Source of the DNA: Methanothrix sp.
GTDB lineage: Archaea; Halobacteriota; Methanosarcinia; Methanotrichales; Methanotrichaceae
NCBI GenBank assembly: GCA_040770465.1
Contig: JAXGJB010000033.1
Coordinates: forward strand, 1-33,967
DNA: 33,967 bases
Direction: 5' to 3'
Both the position numbers and the translations under genes were made by a program. Below, in pieces: positions 705-15,229 of the stretch (position 1 is its first letter; every line of letters starts with the position of its first letter). The notes beneath the pieces are model-generated. The model saw only the letters and a list, made by a program, of their open reading frames with translations. It did no database searches and had not been told where the DNA came from.

Positions 705-794
705 GGAGGTAAGGGGAGAAGGCTCGAAAGATGAAGGCAGATGCATTGGGTCTGGATCTGTGATATTCTTATCTTGGTTTATGCAAAAAGTGCA

Positions 795-830
795 TTTGGG
801 TGGAGAGGTGGAACACCCCGCCACCCAGAT
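795..830. terminator. Imperfect GC-rich hairpin downstream of the 863..1798 gene
   Basis: TGGGTGG-AGA-GGTG-GAA-CACC-CCG-CCACCCA inverted repeat about 35 nt past the stop codon. Confidence 0.35.
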
Positions 831-862
831 TGAAGACGCCACATCAGGTTTCCAATGGCTAC

Positions 863-1798
863 CTATAATGTGCTGTTTGCCGCAAGAATCTCGATGGTCG
901 TATTATCAGCTTGTTCGATTGGTGCGATTAGCTCATAAAGTGCGGCCATTGGCAACGACCTAGTTTCATCAATATTTACTGTTTTTATATCGTCGCTGTA
1001 TAGCTTCATCTTGTCATCCGAGGGCGATGTCACTGCATAAATCCACATAGTGTGCTCGTTACCGATGCCCCATGAATGCAGCCTATGAATTCCAGGAGCG
1101 ATTTTCTGAGTAACGTCAACCGGATTTACCCTTACGTAAAGATCGCCCTTACTGCATTCTTCGGGAACACAAGAAATTCCACCAGGAGCAAAGGAATTAT
1201 AATTCATACATGTTACGGCATCACAGCCGGAAACTTCGTCCCCATCTATCGAGTAATGCTGTCCGTATGATAGGATCTCATCTTCCCAGTAGTCAGTCTC
1301 TGCATAATCTGAACCACTTACAGATAATTTTGCTTCCTCTATGGTACAGTTGGGAACGAATAGGTTCAGATCGAATTCGTCATCGAAATCGTAGGCTATC
1401 ACGCGATACATGTAGGGATCGTCTACATAGTATACACGAGGTGAGTCAGAGAAACTGCCTCCAGCAGCCTCTACTAAGTCTTGGGCTCTATACAAGTCGC
1501 GAAGTATTACTTCTCTCATATCAAGACTGAATGCAGAAGAACTCGCTATGACTACTGTACCATCATCTTTAAAAATAGCCCAGCTGCCAGTGTCTTTGTA
1601 CACCAAAACAATGCCTTTTTCATCATGATCAACTATGTCGTAAATCATATGGAATTCATCAGCTTTCGAGTAAAGAGTTTCAAAATTGACGGATATTCCT
1701 GTTGTCGACACCGCTGACCTGAATTCAGGATACTCTACCGCACTTGCTCCGAGTGTCATACATAATACGCACACGACTATGCCGAAGATTTTCATCAT
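863..1798 (-). CDS. Secreted acidic hypothetical protein
   Basis: 311-aa ORF with a signal peptide (MMKIFGIVVCVLCMTLGASA), GGAGG RBS, Asp/Glu-rich composition, a Cys cluster (CDAVTC...CVPEEC) and NxT sequons. More AT-rich than the core genes. Confidence 0.8.
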   Translation of the reverse strand: MMKIFGIVVCVLCMTLGASAVEYPEFRSAVSTTGISVNFETLYSKADEFHMIYDIVDHDEKGIVLVYKDTGSWAIFKDDGTVVIASSSAFSLDMREVILRDLYRAQDLVEAAGGSFSDSPRVYYVDDPYMYRVIAYDFDDEFDLNLFVPNCTIEEAKLSVSGSDYAETDYWEDEILSYGQHYSIDGDEVSGCDAVTCMNYNSFAPGGISCVPEECSKGDLYVRVNPVDVTQKIAPGIHRLHSWGIGNEHTMWIYAVTSPSDDKMKLYSDDIKTVNIDETRSLPMAALYELIAPIEQADNTTIEILAANSTL

Positions 1799-1913
1799 TC
1801 TCTCCTCCCACGTTGCTCAAAGCATCTATATCACATAGCATATTATCTTAGCAATAAATGTTTGGATCAAAGATCGTCGTCGAGGATGAGAAGGATAAAA
1901 GGGCAGATCCTTC

Positions 1914-3191
1914 TCAGATCCATTTCACTTCGCCATAGGACCACTTTATGTGCTCTTCGGGGTTTGAGCCGCTAAAGTCAACCATGAGGCTTGCCAAACC
2001 AATCGTAGATGATGAAACCATAGCCTCCAATTTCAACTGGTAGAGGTGGTCTTTCATCAATTCGGCTTCGATCTCACCGGTCGGCCATTCATCTATGTAC
2101 TCGTCCAGTAAGGATTCATCCTCGAAAGCCGTTGAGTAGATGAGCACCTTGTCGACGACGAAATCCTCAGTCTTGTCCTCCAAGGTCATGTATACTCTGA
2201 GATCAGCTGAACTCTTGAAGAGGTCCATCGGTAATAAACCACCTAGATCAGACACACCGGCGGTTGCGATCCCCCCTTTGACATGACACTTTAGAACAGC
2301 CCTGCAAAGATGAGTCTCCCTGTCATAAACAAACTCGTCCCAGACCGTTCCGGAGGCCCAGTGGTTGCTAAAACCCGTATCATCACAGAACAGCATTATA
2401 CGCTCGCCCTGGATACTAGAATTGCTGCGCCCGTCTCCAGATCCACCATGATTGCTGACCCCCGAGGTTACGGTGGTGCTTCGCCGGTGGAAGGGCTCCG
2501 GCACGACCGCGGGCTCGATAGATGTTTCAGATTCGTTGATCACGTATTCATGATCACTGCTGGCTGAAGCGGATCCTTTTGAGATTTCTCTCTGGGGAGG
2601 TGCCACTATCACGTTATCGAGCCCCTCAAGATCCTTTCCGTCGCTGTACTCTCCCCGGATCAAGATCCTGTCCACGTGCTCCATCGTCTCCAGGAACTCG
2701 CTCTCGTTGACCCCGAAGAAATCCGCCACCAGCGGTATCTCGTAATGGGTCCAAGCTCCCATTTCAGGCTCAACGGGCCAGGGGGCAGTGGATCCAGGCC
2801 AGGCCACGAAGGAGCCGTTGGGACCGTATATCTTCAGGATGTCAGAGAAGTTCAGGTTGATGCCGTCATCGTCATCGATGAGCCTGATGTCGAAGCTCAA
2901 TAAATCTCCAACGTGAGCAGTCCAGTTCCCAGACCAGGATTCGGGGGAGACGTAGTACCAAGTCTCGTTCTCGTCCGCATCCTCGCCGAGGAGAAAGCCG
3001 CCGGGATTTCCACCCCGCTCCATCCAGGATAAGTTGGCTCCGCCCTCAGAGCGCCACAACTCGTCCGATTGATCAAAGGTGAATCCTTCGACCACATCGG
3101 CTACGATCCCGTTCTCTTCGTCCTGGGCCATCGATGGCAATAGCGACAAAAGAGCCGCAAGGGCCAATATAAGAATCCACCTCTGTCTCAT
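1914..3191 (-). CDS. Secreted protein with laminin domain-IV (laminin B)-like beta-sandwich and an unknown C-terminal domain
   Basis: Signal peptide MRQRWILILALAALLSLLPSMA preceded by GGAGG (start 3191 preferred over 3212). Motif string GGNPGGFL...WYYVSPESWSGNW...LSFDIR...ILIRGEY...EGLDNV is typical of prokaryotic laminin-IV-like domains. A Ser/Thr/Gly-rich linker follows. Confidence 0.75.
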   Translation of the reverse strand: MRQRWILILALAALLSLLPSMAQDEENGIVADVVEGFTFDQSDELWRSEGGANLSWMERGGNPGGFLLGEDADENETWYYVSPESWSGNWTAHVGDLLSFDIRLIDDDDGINLNFSDILKIYGPNGSFVAWPGSTAPWPVEPEMGAWTHYEIPLVADFFGVNESEFLETMEHVDRILIRGEYSDGKDLEGLDNVIVAPPQREISKGSASASSDHEYVINESETSIEPAVVPEPFHRRSTTVTSGVSNHGGSGDGRSNSSIQGERIMLFCDDTGFSNHWASGTVWDEFVYDRETHLCRAVLKCHVKGGIATAGVSDLGGLLPMDLFKSSADLRVYMTLEDKTEDFVVDKVLIYSTAFEDESLLDEYIDEWPTGEIEAELMKDHLYQLKLEAMVSSSTIGLASLMVDFSGSNPEEHIKWSYGEVKWI

Positions 3192-3284
3192 AATAATCTC
3201 CTCCATTTGCATGAACGAATGTGACGATTGGCAAAAAATGTTTCTATGTCGGCCTTTTTCAGAGAAGAGTCATATCAACAGCCG

Positions 3285-3668
3285 TCACCATTCCCCCAGC
3301 TTCGCCTGCCTTTCGCCGCCCGCCTCGCCCACCTCCGGCACCGAGACCCCCAGCTCCACCTCGAACCACTCCGCCACCAGCCGCCGATGGCAGAAGGCGC
3401 CCGGCCTCTCCCAGCAGAGGAGGACGGCGTCCTCGCCGAGGTCGGCATAGACCGTGTTGGGGTCGAGCTTCGAGAGGACTTCTTCCCGGTAGCGCCGAAT
3501 GTACTCGTCCTCGTCGATGGCGCCGCTCTTCGCCTCCTGCACCAGGCGCCAGGAGGGCGCCAGCGGCTCGTACGCGCGGCCGGTCCAGCCGCGGGGCTGG
3601 GTCCGGGAGATGGCGACGGCCCTGGGGTGCGAGCCGGAACGGGAGAAGTTGGAGGTCTGCATATCCAT
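3285..3668 (-). CDS. DUF488 family protein
   Basis: Motifs TSNF...AISR..P...LAPSW.L...Y...Y..EVL..LD...VLLCWE.PGAFCHRRLVAEW match the DUF488 family (LLC.E...CHR). Confidence 0.85.
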   Translation of the reverse strand: MDMQTSNFSRSGSHPRAVAISRTQPRGWTGRAYEPLAPSWRLVQEAKSGAIDEDEYIRRYREEVLSKLDPNTVYADLGEDAVLLCWERPGAFCHRRLVAEWFEVELGVSVPEVGEAGGERQAKLGEW

Positions 3669-4083
3669 CGACTGAGTCCATTTATCACTATTTATCTCAC
3701 CTTAGCGGCTTCGGCAGTTTAATGCTACCCCTTTAATTTCAGCGATTACGTCACCCGAATCATGCGAGGGCATATGCGAGGCCATACATCTACCACCACT
3801 CTGACCGAACAAAACCCTCGGCTGACTGATATGCACCAACAACACGTTGATCCGGCGAGATAATTATGCTCAACTTGGGCTAAGAGCCCGACGATCCGAT
3901 TATACTTATTCGATGAACTTATATCTCTTGAAGACCTTGTATCCCATGTTATTGAGAGATTCACCAACACATGTCGTGCATAAAATCAATTTGTTTTTGC
4001 AATGTGTAAGAGGCGTGGAGAACCTGTTAGCTGGATGCTTTAGAGAGAAAATTTAGATTTTAGAGCTAAATCAATCTCATGAG

Positions 4084-4467
4084 GTGGAATTCTCGATGGA
4101 GATGAGCAAAAAAACTGTGTTAGAAATTGTTCGCAATACCCTAAGTCCAGAGCAGATAGAGCGATCCTTCATCTACTGGGACAGACGTTCCCTCAAGAAG
4201 GGTGAACAGATCAAGGCTGGTCCACAGACCATCACAATCCCGTTTGACGGGACGATGATCTTTGTAGATCTTGCGCCCCGCTTCAATTGGGCACATCCTT
4301 GTCTCTATTTGCTTGTAAATGAGAGAGATCTGAGAACAGAAGTTGCAAAGGCGTCCTTTCCGCCTTACTCAAATAAGTTCCCTGAAACATTCATTATTAT
4401 TCTAAGATACGGGGAAGAGCCGCCGCACGAGCGCTACTTTCAAATATTTGATGAAAGAAAGATGTAG
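4084..4467 (+). CDS. Hypothetical protein; stand-alone homolog of the N-terminal domain of the downstream protease
   Basis: 127-aa ORF; the true start may be ATG 4096, after GAGGTGG. Shares IP...DLAPxxNWAHPCxY...ASFPP with residues ~1-100 of the next ORF, with a 5-nt gap between them. Confidence 0.85.
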   Translation: MEFSMEMSKKTVLEIVRNTLSPEQIERSFIYWDRRSLKKGEQIKAGPQTITIPFDGTMIFVDLAPRFNWAHPCLYLLVNERDLRTEVAKASFPPYSNKFPETFIIILRYGEEPPHERYFQIFDERKM

Positions 4468-4472
4468 ATACT

Positions 4473-6797
4473 ATGAAATTATCGCAGGCTCTAAAAGCTC
4501 AACTAAAGAGTGAAATTTTCAGTGATATCAGGGATATCAACGTAGAAAGGCGAGTAAATCTCTCCCTCTACGATGAGGTACTAAATGCCGGAAAAAAGAT
4601 TCGAGTGTTCGATAAGGAAGTCGTCATCCCTCGAAATACTGCGTTGGTAATGGCTGACCTGGCACCACAATGCAACTGGGCGCACCCTTGCCAGTACCGC
4701 TTGTACGATGCCGATACCGGGAAGCTCTATCAAAAGATGAACGCCTCGTTTCCACCCCCTCAATTTAGACGACACCCCGAACGCGTAGAGGTTTTTCACG
4801 CACCGGTCCAGCCCATAGATACCCAGAAGATGCGTGCCGTTAAGAGAGCAGCCGTGGCGCCTCGACTAAACGCGCTCGCCAACCACCCCGGAGAACGTTA
4901 TGCTATCCTGTTTTCAGGCGATTCCAACAATAGGCACGTCAACGACATCGAGTTTCTCTACCGCACGCTGATTGATGCATATAGCTTCAACGCGGCGAAC
5001 ATACATGTTCTGAATCATGATGGAACCATAAACTACGACGGAGGCCCAAAGCCGGTGGGCAACTGGCCTGGAGACAACACAGCATACCGAATGGCGGTCA
5101 ACGGGCAGGGAACTAGAGCAGCTTTCCAAGCAACCCTAGCCACCCTGGCCACTCAAATACGTCCCGAGGATCTGCTCTTTATCCACACAAATAACCACGG
5201 CGGCGGTCCTTGCGATGGAGTAAACGACTACTGTCTTTGCGCATATGATGCCGCCCTCGATTGGGTCGCATATTACGTAAACGATTTTGTTGCTGATCTT
5301 GGCGTCCTGCCCCGTTTCGATGTGCTGATGGTGATGATGGAACAGTGCCGATCCGGAGGCTTCATCAATCCAATCATCAACAACACCCCAGCTCGATGGA
5401 CTCACGTTGCAACTGCTGTCACCGCCGATGACTATTCACTGGGCGGAGCCAATTTCGACCCCTTCGCCGAAGACTGGATTGCCGGGATAGCTGGCCAGTA
5501 CCCGAACGGAGATGGGCTTACTCAGGTTGTGGATACGAATGGGGACGGACGAATATCTGCCGCGGAGGCTTTTTCCTACGCCGATGCCGTGCATCAGTAT
5601 GACGGCTATATAGCACAATATTGTCAAGGTACGCCTCTTAGATATGGTGATACTCCTACATTCTCAGAGACTCCAACCGGTGCAGGCGCGTGGATCTTCT
5701 TGGGCCTTCCTGCACACGATCTCTTCCTGCGCGATAACCTCGAAGACCACGGTCTCGAGCCCCTCATCGGTGGCGGCATCTGTTGCAGCCCAGACATTAT
5801 CATATATCGTCAACAGTTGCTCGATCCGGATGCAACTCTTCTGACGGCAGCCGCTCAGGATAATGACATGCTGGGTGAGCCAGTCGAGTATGGGCAGGAT
5901 AACTTCGTCTATTTGCGCGTGCAGAACCGCGGATCGCAGCCTACTGCTGGCAAGGTCAAAGTCTACTGGGCACCGCCTTCTGTGCTGCCAACGCCGTCAT
6001 CATGGCATTACCTTGGTGAGGCAGACATCCCAGCAGTCCCCCCTGGAGAGATGATCGTGGTCGGTCCCGTAAAGTGGGAAAAGGCGGATATTCCGGCAGA
6101 AGGACATTACTGTTTTGTGGGACTCGTTCAGAGTGGAGATGACCCTGCCCCTGACAAAGACGCGATCAACACATGGGATGAATTTTACAGGCTAATCCGC
6201 GAGAGCAATAACGTCACTTGGAAGAACTTTGACGTCTATGATACCTTCGCCAATTCTATGAATAGCCTGGAATTCCACATCCAGGGCTGGCCCAGGACAA
6301 GGCTCTCGGCCGATCTGCTGATAGATCTCTCGGAGATGCCGCGGGAAATGGAGGTCAGGCTTCGGATACTCAAACGTCTAAGCGCAACAGCTACGCTGGA
6401 AAATATGCAGCTGGAAGAGGAGTCACAACGTTACCAGAAATTCCGGGTAGATGGTGGGGCGCGTGGGTTCCTGCATGGCATGGATCTTAAGCCATCAGAT
6501 GACACCCAGGCGTGGCTTGAAGTTGTGGTCCCGGAGGGTATACCCGACGGGGCGTATCGCTTGGGTGTTGCACAGATAGTTGATGGCCTCGAAATGGGAA
6601 GGGTCACGCGCGTTCTGGCTGTAGGAGACTACAAATTCTTGGCAAACAGCAATTCAAAAGAAGTGCACGTTCCCGAGTGTGTTTGGGCACATAGAGTTGC
6701 ACCCAAAAACAAAGTTGCCTACAGTGATCTGGACCGAGCTCTGAAACACGGTTACAATGGCTGTCACTATTGTCTTCCGGAGTTCAGCACCGATTAG
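4473..6797 (+). CDS. Clan CD (C13 legumain/caspase-like) cysteine peptidase with N-terminal prodomain-like region, Ig/CARDB-like region and C-terminal Ada-like Zn-binding module
   Basis: RYAILFSG strand, LFIHTNNHGG (His242), VMMEQCRSGGF (Cys292), DTNGDGRISAAE Ca-loop, DLFLRDN..SPDI..NFVYLRVQNRG..VKVYWA..GHYCF..NNVTWKN Ig-like block, terminal NSKEVHVPEC...GYNGCHYCLP. No signal peptide. Confidence 0.85.
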   Translation: MKLSQALKAQLKSEIFSDIRDINVERRVNLSLYDEVLNAGKKIRVFDKEVVIPRNTALVMADLAPQCNWAHPCQYRLYDADTGKLYQKMNASFPPPQFRRHPERVEVFHAPVQPIDTQKMRAVKRAAVAPRLNALANHPGERYAILFSGDSNNRHVNDIEFLYRTLIDAYSFNAANIHVLNHDGTINYDGGPKPVGNWPGDNTAYRMAVNGQGTRAAFQATLATLATQIRPEDLLFIHTNNHGGGPCDGVNDYCLCAYDAALDWVAYYVNDFVADLGVLPRFDVLMVMMEQCRSGGFINPIINNTPARWTHVATAVTADDYSLGGANFDPFAEDWIAGIAGQYPNGDGLTQVVDTNGDGRISAAEAFSYADAVHQYDGYIAQYCQGTPLRYGDTPTFSETPTGAGAWIFLGLPAHDLFLRDNLEDHGLEPLIGGGICCSPDIIIYRQQLLDPDATLLTAAAQDNDMLGEPVEYGQDNFVYLRVQNRGSQPTAGKVKVYWAPPSVLPTPSSWHYLGEADIPAVPPGEMIVVGPVKWEKADIPAEGHYCFVGLVQSGDDPAPDKDAINTWDEFYRLIRESNNVTWKNFDVYDTFANSMNSLEFHIQGWPRTRLSADLLIDLSEMPREMEVRLRILKRLSATATLENMQLEEESQRYQKFRVDGGARGFLHGMDLKPSDDTQAWLEVVVPEGIPDGAYRLGVAQIVDGLEMGRVTRVLAVGDYKFLANSNSKEVHVPECVWAHRVAPKNKVAYSDLDRALKHGYNGCHYCLPEFSTD

Positions 6798-6824
6798 AGA
6801 CGAAAATGGTGTTCGCCTGCTAAA

Positions 6825-6885
6825 AATCAACTGGTGCATCCAGCCGACCGCGCTTTCGCGCGGCGGCTGAATCACATCCTTGGGA
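6825..6885 (+). mobile_element. Degenerate integron attC-like recombination site
   Basis: AATCAAC (R'') - 5 nt - CATCCAGC (L'') - CGACCGCGC TTTC GCGCGGCG - GCTGAAT (L') - 6 nt - CTTGGGA (R' with G>C). Two unpaired bases (C6840, A6847) sit at the positions expected for attC extrahelical bases; the site begins 28 nt after a stop codon. Confidence 0.55.
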
Positions 6886-7014
6886 GCAAACAGGATCGAA
6901 TTTCTTGAGTTGATCATCAATACTCCGGGCTTTGAGCCTATAAGCTGAGGCTAGACGTCAAATTGGTATTTTATCCCTGAATCTCCACGAAGAATGTAGA
7001 AAGTTGGCGGCGGC

Positions 7015-9402
7015 CTAGTTGATCCGCGCCACCGCCGCCACCTCATCCCCCTCATCGAGCCGCATGATCCGGACGCCCTGGGTCGCCCTGCCCTGGACTC
7101 TGATGTCAGAGGCGGGGATCCTGATCATCTTGCCGTCTTTGGTGGTGATCATCAGCTCGTCATCCTCGGAGACGGTCCGGGAGGCGACGACGTCCCCTTT
7201 CTTCGATTCTATGTTCTTCATCCCCTTGCCGCCCCGCCGGTGAGCCGAGTATTCGGAGAGCGCCGTCCTCTTCCCGTACCCCTGCCGTGTCACGGTGAGG
7301 AGGGCGGCCTCTGGCCGGACCACGTCCATGCAGATAACCGCGTCGTCGTCATTGAGATCTATTCCCCTAACCCCCATAGAGCCCCGGTTGCTGGGCCGGA
7401 TGTGCTTTTCGTTGAACCTGATCGCCTTGCCGCCGGCGGTGGCGATGATCAGGTCCTGGTCGCCTCCCGTGAGCCTCGCCGCGACGAGGCTATCGCCCCG
7501 GAGGTTCACGGCCTTTATCCCGCCCTTCCGGGGGTTGCTGTAGGCCCGGATCGGAGTCTTGACGACCTGACCCCTGGAGGTGGCCATGACGATGAACCCC
7601 TCGGAGTCGAAGCTCTTGACCGGGATCGCCTCGGTGATCTTCTCGTCCGCCTCCAGGGAGAGGAGGTTGACGATCGATTTTCCTCGGGCGGTCCTGCCGA
7701 AAGATGGGACGTCGAAGACCCTTAGCCAGTGGGCCTTGCCCATATCGGTGAAGAAGAGGATGTACTCGTGGGTGGTGGCTATGAAGAGGTCGGTGACGAA
7801 GTCCTCGCTCTTGGTATCCGCCCCGATTATGCCCTTTCCGCCCCGCCTCTGCTGCCGGTAGGCGGAGAGGGGCTGACGCTTGATGTACCCGTCGCTGGTG
7901 ATGGTCACCGCCACCTCCTCCTCCTGGATCAGATCCTCAAGCTCGATCTCCTCCTCAGCCTCGATGATCTGCGTCCGCCGGCCGTCGCCGTACTTTCCGA
8001 CCAGCTCTGCAAGCTCCTGCTTTATGATGTTCAGGACCTCTCGAGGATCGGCCAGGATCTCCCGGAACCGGGCGATGGCCACTTCGAGCTCTTCCTCCTC
8101 AGACCGGATCTTCCCCTGCTCAAGAGCCGTCAGCCTCTGGAGCCTCATGTCCAGGATCGCCTTCGTCTGCTCCTCGGATAGGGCGAAGGCCTCGGTGAGG
8201 GCGGCTCTCGCCTCCGCCGGCGACTCGGCCGCCCGGATCAGCTTGATGACCAGATCGATGTTACCGAGGGCTATGAGGAGCCCCGCCAGGATGTGGGCCC
8301 TCCTCTCGGCCCGGTCGAGGTCGAACCGGGTCCTCCTCTCCACCACCTCGGTCCGATGGAATACGTACTGCTCCAGGATGTCCCGGAGGGGGAGGGTCGC
8401 AGGCTGGCCGTCGACGAGAACGACGTTGATTATGCTGTACGAGGTTTCAAGCTGGGTCTGCCGGTGGAGCTGGTTCAAGACCACCTCGGGGTTGACCCCG
8501 GACCGCAGCTCGACGACGAGCCTGATCCCCTCCCGGTCCGACTCGTCCCGGAGGTCGGAGATCCCGTCGACCCGGTCAGCCTTTATCAGGTCGGCGATCG
8601 TCTCGACTACCTTCGCCTTGTTCACCTGGTAGGGTAGCTCCGTCACCACGATCTTCGGCCGCTCGCCCCGCTCGATCACCGACTTCGCCCGGAGCTTGAT
8701 TATCCCCCGGCCGGTGGCGTAGGCGGACTCGATCCCCGTGCTCCCCAGGATGTAGCCGCCGGTGGGGAAATCGGGCCCCGGCAGCTCCTCCATCAGGTCT
8801 GCAAGGGTCGCGTCGGGATCGTCGATCAGCCTCGTTATGGCTCCTGCCACCTCGTTGAGGTTATGGGGCGGAACGTTAGTCGCCATCCCCACGGCGATCC
8901 CGGCGGACCCGTTGACCAGCAGGTTCGGAAGCTTCGACGGGAGGATCGAAGGCTCCTTGAGGGATTCGTCGTAGTTGGGGACGAAGTCGACGGTATCCTT
9001 CTCGATGTCGACGAGCATCTCGCCCGCGATCTCCGAGAGGCGGACCTCGGTGTACCTCATCGCCGCCGCGGGATCGCCGTCGATGGACCCGAAGTTTCCC
9101 TGGCCGTCGATGAGGGGGTAGCGCATCGAGAAGTCCTGGGCCATCCTCACCATCGTCTCGTAGATCGCGGCGTCGCCGTGGGGGTGATACTTACCCATAA
9201 CGTCTCCGACAACCCTCGCCGACTTCTTGTAGGGCTGGTCTGAGGTCATCCCCTGCTCGTACATGGCGTAGAGGATACGCCTGTGGACGGGCTTGAGGCC
9301 GTCCCGGACGTCAGGGAGGGCCCGGCCCACGATGACGCTCATGGCGTAATCAATGTAAGAGGACTTCATCTCCGAAGTTATGTCAACGTCGATCTCCGTC
9401 AT
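7015..9402 (-). CDS. gyrA: DNA gyrase subunit A
   Basis: [29 protein letters not shown] (catalytic Tyr), GyrA-box QRRGGKG, C-terminal pinwheel repeats. Confidence 0.98.
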
Positions 9403-15136: not shown

Positions 15137-15229
15137 TGCGCCGACCGGGATTCGAACCCGGGTTTTGGGCTTGCTCCGCGACACCTGCCGCTTGGAAGGC
15201 CCAAGTCATAACCACTGGACCATCGGCGC
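15137..15229 (-). tRNA. tRNA-Gly(TCC) with a 21-nt intron at position 37/38 (intron 15172..15192)
   Basis: Acceptor stem GCGCCGA/TCGGCGC plus discriminator A, D-arm GTCCAGTGGTTATGAC, anticodon stem TGGGC/GCCCA with CT-TCC-A, T-arm CCGGG-TTCGAAT-CCCGG. The intron forms a bulge-helix-bulge; CCA is not encoded. Confidence 0.95.

Follow-up and report, generated by a model that had tools for sequence, protein, structure and literature searches.

Genomic context of the locus

The window (the whole 33,967-nucleotide stretch of DNA analysed here) carries mtrE, mtrD, mtrC and mtrH together with genes for TFIIB, an archaeal-type HMG-CoA synthase and CDP-archaeol synthase; its host is therefore a methanogenic archaeon; the initial annotation had named an archaeon from the letters alone. 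On its left side a small conserved ORF on the minus strand (3285..3668), with 87.7% identity to the closest relative, G001, over 3284-3672, represents the native flank of an insertion of 3.3 kb (~3673..7005) that stands out by its low GC content, 42-55% compared with 62-66% in the flanks. The native right flank is gyrA, identified by Pfam and also on the minus strand (7015..9402), convergent with the protease gene described below and conserved at 83-90% nucleotide identity in 15/15 same-genus genomes. Between the same two genes G001 (2 contigs) has a spacer of 91 bp, where the window has 3.3 kb. Moreover, two contigs of an activated-sludge metagenome (X4) join position 3662 to position 7014, that is, the empty-site form, belonging to related strains without the island. 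The island itself is present in digester and sludge communities.

Homology of the same-genus genomes to window positions 6700-7300 begins only at 7003-7017, the end of gyrA, in all 15, and the DNA beyond gyrA was different in all 11 same-genus loci read; by these comparisons the spot behind gyrA behaves as a variable hot spot. The flanks of the island were not found in the 100 other genomes of the methanogen family, which gave only short pieces of 22-66 nt, nor did they show nucleotide similarity to 58 loci carrying protease homologues. A search for a tRNA or att-type integration target found no tRNA near the island, and a search for terminal repeats yielded short families at chance level only.

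The non-coding left part of the island contains a stretch of 50 nt (3909-3958) that matches two contigs of the methanogen-family genome G020 at 88% and 74% and may be a small repeat, as well as a tandem 12-nt repeat, ATGCGAGGGCAT / ATGCGAGGCCAT, at 3762-3785. A second low-GC variable block lies at 710-3284, where it replaces 3.85 kb of different DNA in G001; it holds two ORFs, one at 863-1798 and one at 1914-3212 that matches Laminin_B weakly. Further along the window, ARAGORN called a 93-nt tRNA-like gene on the minus strand (15137-15229) with a four-base anticodon (ccaa) and no amino acid assigned.

The protease module

The largest ORF of the module, presumed to be cassette cargo, lies on the plus strand at 4473..6797 and encodes 774 aa resembling the C13 (legumain/caspase-fold) peptidases. 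Its match to Peptidase_C13 (Pfam PF01650, E 8e-5) is weak, with 22.7 bits against a cut-off of 22.8, and the Atlas, used as a lead only, pointed to C13 clusters at 0.88. A partner ORF (4084..4467), which immediately precedes it on the plus strand, encodes 127 aa, a paralogue of the ~100 N-terminal residues of the protease; in tblastn searches with this partner a second match fell inside the protease N-terminus. The pairing is conserved: by tblastn, the 127-aa partner was found directly upstream and on the same strand in 15 of the 16 loci where the protease match is long; in the sixteenth it lies on the opposite strand, downstream of the protease. PADLOC gave no match for either module protein or for the two neighbouring ORFs of the island, and we consider the pair a candidate unclassified two-gene system.

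Relatives of the protease were found in 47 loci, at 47-66% identity, scattered over bacteria and archaea, while a full-length copy in the host's class was present in only 2 of 300 other genomes (60-63%). The initial annotation had proposed checking whether the closest homologues lie in cassette arrays. The result speaks against this: with the covariance model R1 (see below) an attC was detected in 0 of 58 protease-homologue loci (548,219 bases), the lone match reaching 15.7 bits with an E-value of 0.55, and the hairpins found downstream of homologous protease genes are unrelated in sequence to that of the window. The module is thus mobile, yet not a usual cassette cargo.

Sequence and folding of the site at 6825-6885

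In a working integron the bottom strand of an attC site folds into a hairpin and IntI dimers bind its R and L boxes; extrahelical G and T bases set the polarity, and cleavage takes place in the bottom-strand AAC of R', which corresponds to G|TT on the top strand. The 61-bp site analysed here lies where the initial annotation had placed it, directly 3' of the protease ORF (4473-6797) and in the same orientation, with R'' first and starting 27 nt after the stop codon (6795-6797); on its other side it faces the 3' end of gyrA. It reads AATCAAC (6825-6831), TGGTG (6832-6836), CATCCAGC (6837-6844), CGACCGCGC (6845-6853), TTTC (6854-6857), GCGCGGCG (6858-6865), GCTGAAT (6866-6872), CACATC (6873-6878) and CTTGGGA (6879-6885), and re-reading of the sequence reproduced exactly the letters and block plan reported before.

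The folds also bore out the stem that had been proposed: CAGCCG (6841-6846) pairs with CGGCTG (6864-6869) and CCGCGC (6848-6853) with GCGCGG (6858-6863), so that the core hairpin (6839..6870, plus strand) consists of 6 bp, a bulged A6847 (bottom-strand T), 6 bp and the loop TTTC at 6854-6857. Two bases, A6847 and C6840, had been described as unpaired; this holds for A6847, whereas C6840 is unpaired in the canonical attC register only, since in the minimum-energy fold of the bottom strand its complement forms a G-T wobble and the bulged base is the complement of C6837. The covariance-model alignment puts C6840 on the bulge position of the aadA1-type attC. The L'' box, CATCCAGC (6837..6844, plus strand), with C6840 (bottom-strand G) as its extrahelical base, aligns without gaps to members of the environmental family described below that have identical arms. 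The L' box, GCTGAAT (6866..6872, plus strand), pairs poorly with GTGCAT past GCTGA and has two mismatches relative to the family pattern. The boxes CATCCAGC and GCTGAAT form an imperfect L''/L' helix with an extra base in L'' and fall within model positions 15-45, bulge column included, and the two extrahelical bases on the R''/L'' arm, C6840 and A6847, occupy the same columns as those of the aadA1-type and family attCs.

The 61-nt bottom strand folds with -19.0 kcal/mol (z = -4.81), and 0 of 200 shuffled sequences were as stable; these values are nearly equal to those of the bottom strand of the aadA1 attC from plasmid R100 (-18.8 kcal/mol, z = -4.87). Folded as single-stranded DNA, a region of 81 nt gave -20.1 kcal/mol for the plus strand (z -3.51) and -19.8 kcal/mol for the minus strand (z -3.70).

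The R'' box, AATCAAC (6825..6831, plus strand), agrees with RYYYAAC in 6/7 positions and has its AAC intact; between the end of this AAC and CCAGC there is a distance of 8 nt, which recurs in 59 AAC occurrences among 74 metagenomic copies of the family. The R' box, CTTGGGA (6879..6885, plus strand), agrees with GTTRRRY in 5/7 positions: TT and RRR are kept, the crossover G is replaced by C and the last base is A, so that no crossover G|TT is present. The earlier description of R' as degenerate, with CTT for GTT, therefore stands, and the box lies at the exact position of R' in the family, starting 8 nt after GCTGA, which is the commonest GTT distance (40 occurrences). The base itself is unchanged in independent metagenome contigs: the contig of run X3 (3664-6940) has 18 differences from the window, none within 6825-6885, and that of run X7 (6817-6995) has 0; hence C6879 is genuine. 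The two R boxes are not complementary, with 3 Watson-Crick pairs and one G-T pair out of 7, and the site folds without an R helix. This carries less weight because, where cassettes stand in an array, it is the adjacent unit that supplies the distal part of R'.

Two further elements were observed around the R boxes. GTTGATC at 6909-6915, 38 nt after L', is complementary to the R'' AATCAAC in 6/7 positions (chance estimate ~0.1) and, when 6820-6920 is folded, closes a helix of 7 bp. Moreover, an 18-nt direct repeat (D7, 78%) links 3977-3994 with 6818-6835; the second copy covers the R'' region and the first lies ~35 nt before GTTAGCT, in a region (3975-4035) that gave no hairpin or other structure when folded.

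GTTAGCT, which the initial annotation had named as a possible left end of the cassette, is indeed present on the plus strand at 4026..4032 and is a candidate left boundary (G|TTAGCT), GTTAGCT and GTTAGCC being common R' boxes of the family. Its chance expectation in the upstream spacer is roughly 0.1 (estimate), and folds of the sequence upstream of 4026 revealed no folded site (z -0.3 to -0.7). The putative cassette delimited in this way, 4027-6879, would be 2.85 kb long, more than every attC spacing noted in the metagenomic arrays (~0.4-2.3 kb), and the island (~3673-7005) extends beyond it on both sides, by 354 nt (left) and 126 nt (right). Judged solely by its position and orientation relative to the site, the protease module is likely to be of cassette origin.

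Covariance models of attC

Covariance models were built from natural attC sites taken from eleven class 1 integron plasmids. Because MAFFT put the centre in the wrong place when attCs differing in length were aligned, model R1 was made from five sites of 58-60 nt with canonical structure, and R2 from 11 model-aligned rows. Both models are small, dominated by aadA1-type sites and distinct from the IntegronFinder model, and their E-values are rough. With filters off, each of them found one strong match in the window, at 6839-6870 on the plus strand, scoring 24.9 bits with R1 (E 4.4e-5; runner-up 10.0 bits) and 25.8 bits with R2 (E 8.5e-5; runner-up 8.8 bits). For comparison, held-out real attCs scored 15-57 bits with R1, all of them spanning model positions 1-60.

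In both models the window aligns over positions 15-45 only, which include the L box, both bulges, the stem and the loop and leave the R boxes outside. This was counted against an attC assignment, since the real attCs tested all align over 1-60, as do nearly all of the metagenomic ones, whereas the window aligns by its core only. When the whole genome was scanned with R1, the window site alone was listed (E 0.0033; 150 of 488 candidates scored). The R2 scan listed one 16-bit match elsewhere and not the window site (150 of 1018 candidates scored), a result that is not informative on absence. Rfam, which has no attC family, gave only chance-level matches for 6500-7200 at E <= 10 (best E 3.1).

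An environmental attC family in metagenomes

Metagenome contigs were scanned with the motif CCAGCCGACSSSSS N3-5 SSSSSGCGGCTGA, and this core was found in at least 119 metagenome stretches. From the matches listed, 80 loci were fetched, which gave 74 distinct copies with full flanks. Among these listed copies, 64 of the 74 have an AAC ending 7-9 nt upstream and a GTT starting 6-12 nt downstream; the other 10 comprise 6 without AAC, 3 without GTT and 1 without both. Over the 74 copies a distance of 8 nt is the commonest on either side, with 59 occurrences for AAC and 40 for GTT. When R2 was run over 79 of the fetched loci, 157 matches were obtained at E <= 0.001, with at least one in 77 of the 79, and in 33 of them a hand count gave at least two matches on the same strand, ~0.4-2.3 kb apart, that is, cassette arrays.

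The arms of the hairpin are identical to those of the window in 8 of the 74 copies, to which the window aligns without gaps; compared with these it has its AAC at 8 nt and CTT where GTT is expected. To compare the surroundings of the core independently of the core itself, flank profiles (PWMs) were derived from the 16-nt flanks of all 74 copies. The flanks of the window fit these profiles with p ~0.009-0.016 on the left, 0.019-0.023 on the right and 0.001 combined, and rank above 7-9 of the 74 copies (left) and 18-20 of the 74 (right), in the lower part of the family. The position behind a gene is likewise shared: of 58 family sites, 55 have an open frame on the same strand whose end falls in the range from 45 nt inside to 150 nt upstream of R'', the median end lying 15 nt before R'', as compared with 27 nt in the window.

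Model scores, copies of the family motif and flank profiles together place the feature well outside what chance would give and uphold the original reading of an attC-type site degenerate at R'. Very likely, 6825-6885 is an attC of the widespread environmental family CCAGCCGAC-(GC stem)-loop-(GC stem)-GCGGCTGA, which the 60-bp attC of aadA1 type closely resembles. Measured against its closest relatives, the window copy has a G-to-C change at the crossover base and two mismatches in the L' extension.

Integrase, further attC sites and known systems

As the initial annotation had noted for the window, no intI was detected, and the same holds for the genome, in which the best TIGR02249 match reached 42.5 bits as compared with a cut-off of 265 bits; in the methanogen family 0 of 101 genomes had an IntI (TIGR02249) at E <= 1e-20. 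Within the window no second R1 or R2 match exceeded 10.0 bits. A BLAST search of the site plus spacer against its own genome returned no other copy, a script scan of the genome for canonical R boxes gave as best pairs coding-like sequences at -0.25 kcal/mol per nt or weaker, and a scan with a relaxed core motif found the window site only. The search for further attC copies that had been suggested thus found none in the genome by BLAST, by script or among the 150 of 488 candidates scored with R1. The locus has neither a nearby IntI nor two or more attCs less than 4 kb apart, as an integron or CALIN would; by the models and scans used here it has a single attC with a CDS and no integrase or other att site nearby, which is the arrangement of a SALIN.

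SALINs, in the available part of the report describing them (bioRxiv 10.1101/2022.09.11.507474), are like the locus described here in having one CDS-bearing unit and one attC, with neither an integrase nor another att site nearby, on the chromosome and outside an integron. They were defined there in bacterial RefSeq genomes by IntegronFinder calls, whereas the site described here is archaeal, has a mutated R' and was recognised with our own models. IntegronFinder 2, according to the accessible portion of its description (PMC9024848), filters single attC sites by default, although these 'can be true positives'.

The closest well-known likeness is the aadA1-type attC of 60 bp (the '59-base element'; aadA1, aadB, catB3, qacF). 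It shares with the window the block plan 7-5-8-stem-loop-stem-7-6-7, the positions of the bulged C and A, a GC upper stem and a loop of 3-4 nt, and its lower stem (AGCCGAC...GCGGCT) is near-identical to that of the window. Its R' is GTTAGAT, however, whereas the window has CTTGGGA, no R''/R' helix and a mismatched extension of the L box. The aadA1-type sites belong to class 1 integron cassettes, while the window's host is a methanogen in which neither an integrase nor an array was found. The environmental family CCAGCCGAC...GCGGCTGA shares with the window the same spacing of AAC (8 nt) and R' (8 nt) and an ORF end a few tens of nucleotides upstream; it occurs in arrays in at least 33 of 79 loci, whereas the copy in the window stands alone and has C at the crossover position.

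Integrons in Archaea were not reported until 2022; the survey of archaeal integrons and CALINs by Ghaly et al. (2022, Sci Adv, PMC9668308), with attCs of bacterial type and mostly without IntI, was based on MAG contigs and left out all singleton attCs. Data S1 of the same paper, as far as accessible, includes a Methanomicrobiales MAG with 4 attCs and no IntI, and in the supplement text searched the name Methanoculleus has 0 occurrences. In comparison with the sites of that survey, the window site is a singleton in a chromosomal region whose flanking genes are conserved and which exists in empty form in a sister genome.

Origin of the site and alternative explanations

We propose that 6825-6885 is probably a fossil attC, SALIN-like, which marks the cassette origin of the two-gene protease module and is now inactive. 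The site retains its L box with both extrahelical bases, its stem and loop, every spacing and the AAC of R'', while the C in place of the crossover G of R' leaves AAG on the bottom strand, and no integron integrase was found. By the established mechanism of attC recombination these two facts make recombination unlikely, and the site is most likely inert; it may have been immobilised by the G-to-C change, as the initial annotation proposed, or simply by the absence of an integrase. With the attC 27 nt after the protease stop and in the same orientation, the module at 4084-6797 would be the former cargo. The cassette probably arrived on a slightly larger foreign piece of 3.3 kb, which host recombination would have placed in the hypervariable spot behind gyrA, with no integrase acting in this cell. 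Uptake of such a fragment is favoured over insertion in place by an integrase because it can do without that enzyme and accounts for the greater size of the island relative to the cassette.

Insertion in place is an unlikely course of events, although it accounts well for some details of the sequence. An integron integrase acting in trans would have joined attC x attG, a route known from SALINs, at a GTT (5'-GWT-3') in the AT-rich spacer of the methanogen; the cassette would be exactly 4027-6879, with 3673-4026 and 6880-7005 as native spacer on either side. The left junction would then be CCTG|TTAGCT, with a typical family R', and the right junction C|TTGGGA; joining the outer sides gives ...CCTG|TTGG..., a GTT target that fits the GWT consensus of Loot et al. 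(bioRxiv 10.1101/2022.09.11.507474). Spacers of the genus are AT-rich (that of G001 has ~38% GC, an estimate), so the low-GC flanks could be native, and a hypervariable locus, with 11/11 same-genus spacers differing, would suit this route too. Nevertheless, the archaeon would need to express a bacterial IntI, and searches of its genome and of 101 genomes of the family found none; the supposed native flanks occur in no relative among the 100 other family genomes, the junction G is C, and the chance expectation of GTTAGCT given above also weighs against this route. A fossil cassette brought in on a larger fragment is thus the reading that we prefer.

It is highly improbable that the site is an ordinary GC-rich stem-loop, a terminator or an mRNA 3' stabiliser, resembling an attC by chance and with no integron ancestry. 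Homologous protease genes elsewhere also have 3' hairpins, though of unrelated sequence, the hairpin has a T5 run behind it on the minus strand, and the covariance match is confined to the core with a genome-wide E of 0.0033 under rough calibration; in addition, the site was chosen out of a very large scan, in which some chance matches are expected. These points have to be set against arms identical to those of 8 environmental attCs, in a motif of which 64/74 copies have both R boxes, and against flanks that fit the family profiles (combined p ~0.001) at the exact family spacing. An intrinsic terminator was considered and rejected: there is no T-run on the plus strand, the T5 on the minus strand lies ~10 nt from the stem, and a terminator scan made no call at the hairpin. 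The initial annotation had itself named as a rival a bidirectional terminator conserved behind gyrA; since homology starts at the end of gyrA in 15/15 same-genus genomes and 11/11 spacers differ, the hairpin is absent behind gyrA in the relatives and this version is ruled out. A contig of the RNA-library run X19 (6500-7171) runs straight across the hairpin, a weak hint of read-through and against efficient termination; the run covers only 9 of 30 bins, and missing cover over most of the module carries no meaning. The hairpin may still act as a 3' structure in RNA.

That a real attC lies on bacterial DNA misjoined to an archaeal contig, through an assembly chimera or bin contamination, has a next to negligible probability: the assembly has 66 contigs with an estimated contamination of 3.44% and the GC content of the island is foreign, but the genes on either side of the island are native and stand in the same order in the closest relative, and contigs of other studies bridge both its left junction (X4, 3635-6550; X7, 3627-4551) and its right one (X4, 6817-7043; X19, 6500-7171), with no change at C6879.

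A bacterial-type attC in a methanogen chromosome, between conserved core genes, with an empty site in a sister genome and junctions recovered from independent metagenomes, would be a clean and datable footprint of a gene from the cassette pool reaching an archaeon, and a concrete substrate for testing whether, and how, cassettes enter archaeal genomes. It also shows that comparison at the level of a family can bring to light single attCs in slight decay, of the kind that standard pipelines throw out, and it points to a conserved, unclassified two-gene module with a C13-like protease as mobile accessory cargo.

attC-like sites elsewhere in the methanogen family

R1 gave matches at E <= 1 in 23 of 101 genomes of the methanogen family, that of the window included; 14 of the matches outscore the window site and 12 of these 14 are full length. 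Six of them represent one conserved 59-nt attC-like site, found directly 3' of katG in six genomes from three genera, with 29.5-36.6 bits over model positions 1-60 (loci L089, L092, L094, L096, L097 and L098, with the site at ~1501-1559; also L228-L232); the katG product matches the catalase/peroxidase family with 1347 bits. The block of 2.38 kb formed by katG plus the site is 88-91% identical between one genome (G064) and four others, and in G064 it has different flanks. The block ends ~5 nt past R' and not at G|TT, so that the case for a cassette is suggestive only.

These sites raise the tentative and rather doubtful prospect that integron cassettes are a recurrent vehicle for bacterial genes into the chromosomes of this methanogen family, in which no resident integrase was found. 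Cassettes might have been inserted at GWT sites by an integrase acting in trans, or taken up as cassette-bearing fragments. If this were true, the integron gene pool would be the source from which methanogens obtained traits such as peroxide tolerance and a candidate protease-based defence.

Other canonical-looking attC sites of the family, such as GCCTAAC...GTTGGGC, were seen next to accessory genes on putatively archaeal contigs (L090, L091, L093 and L095). One contig (G197:C22) has two attC-like matches 2.5 kb apart, and one such site of the family lies 117 nt after an ORF that we take to encode an ArsC/LMW-phosphatase by its look.
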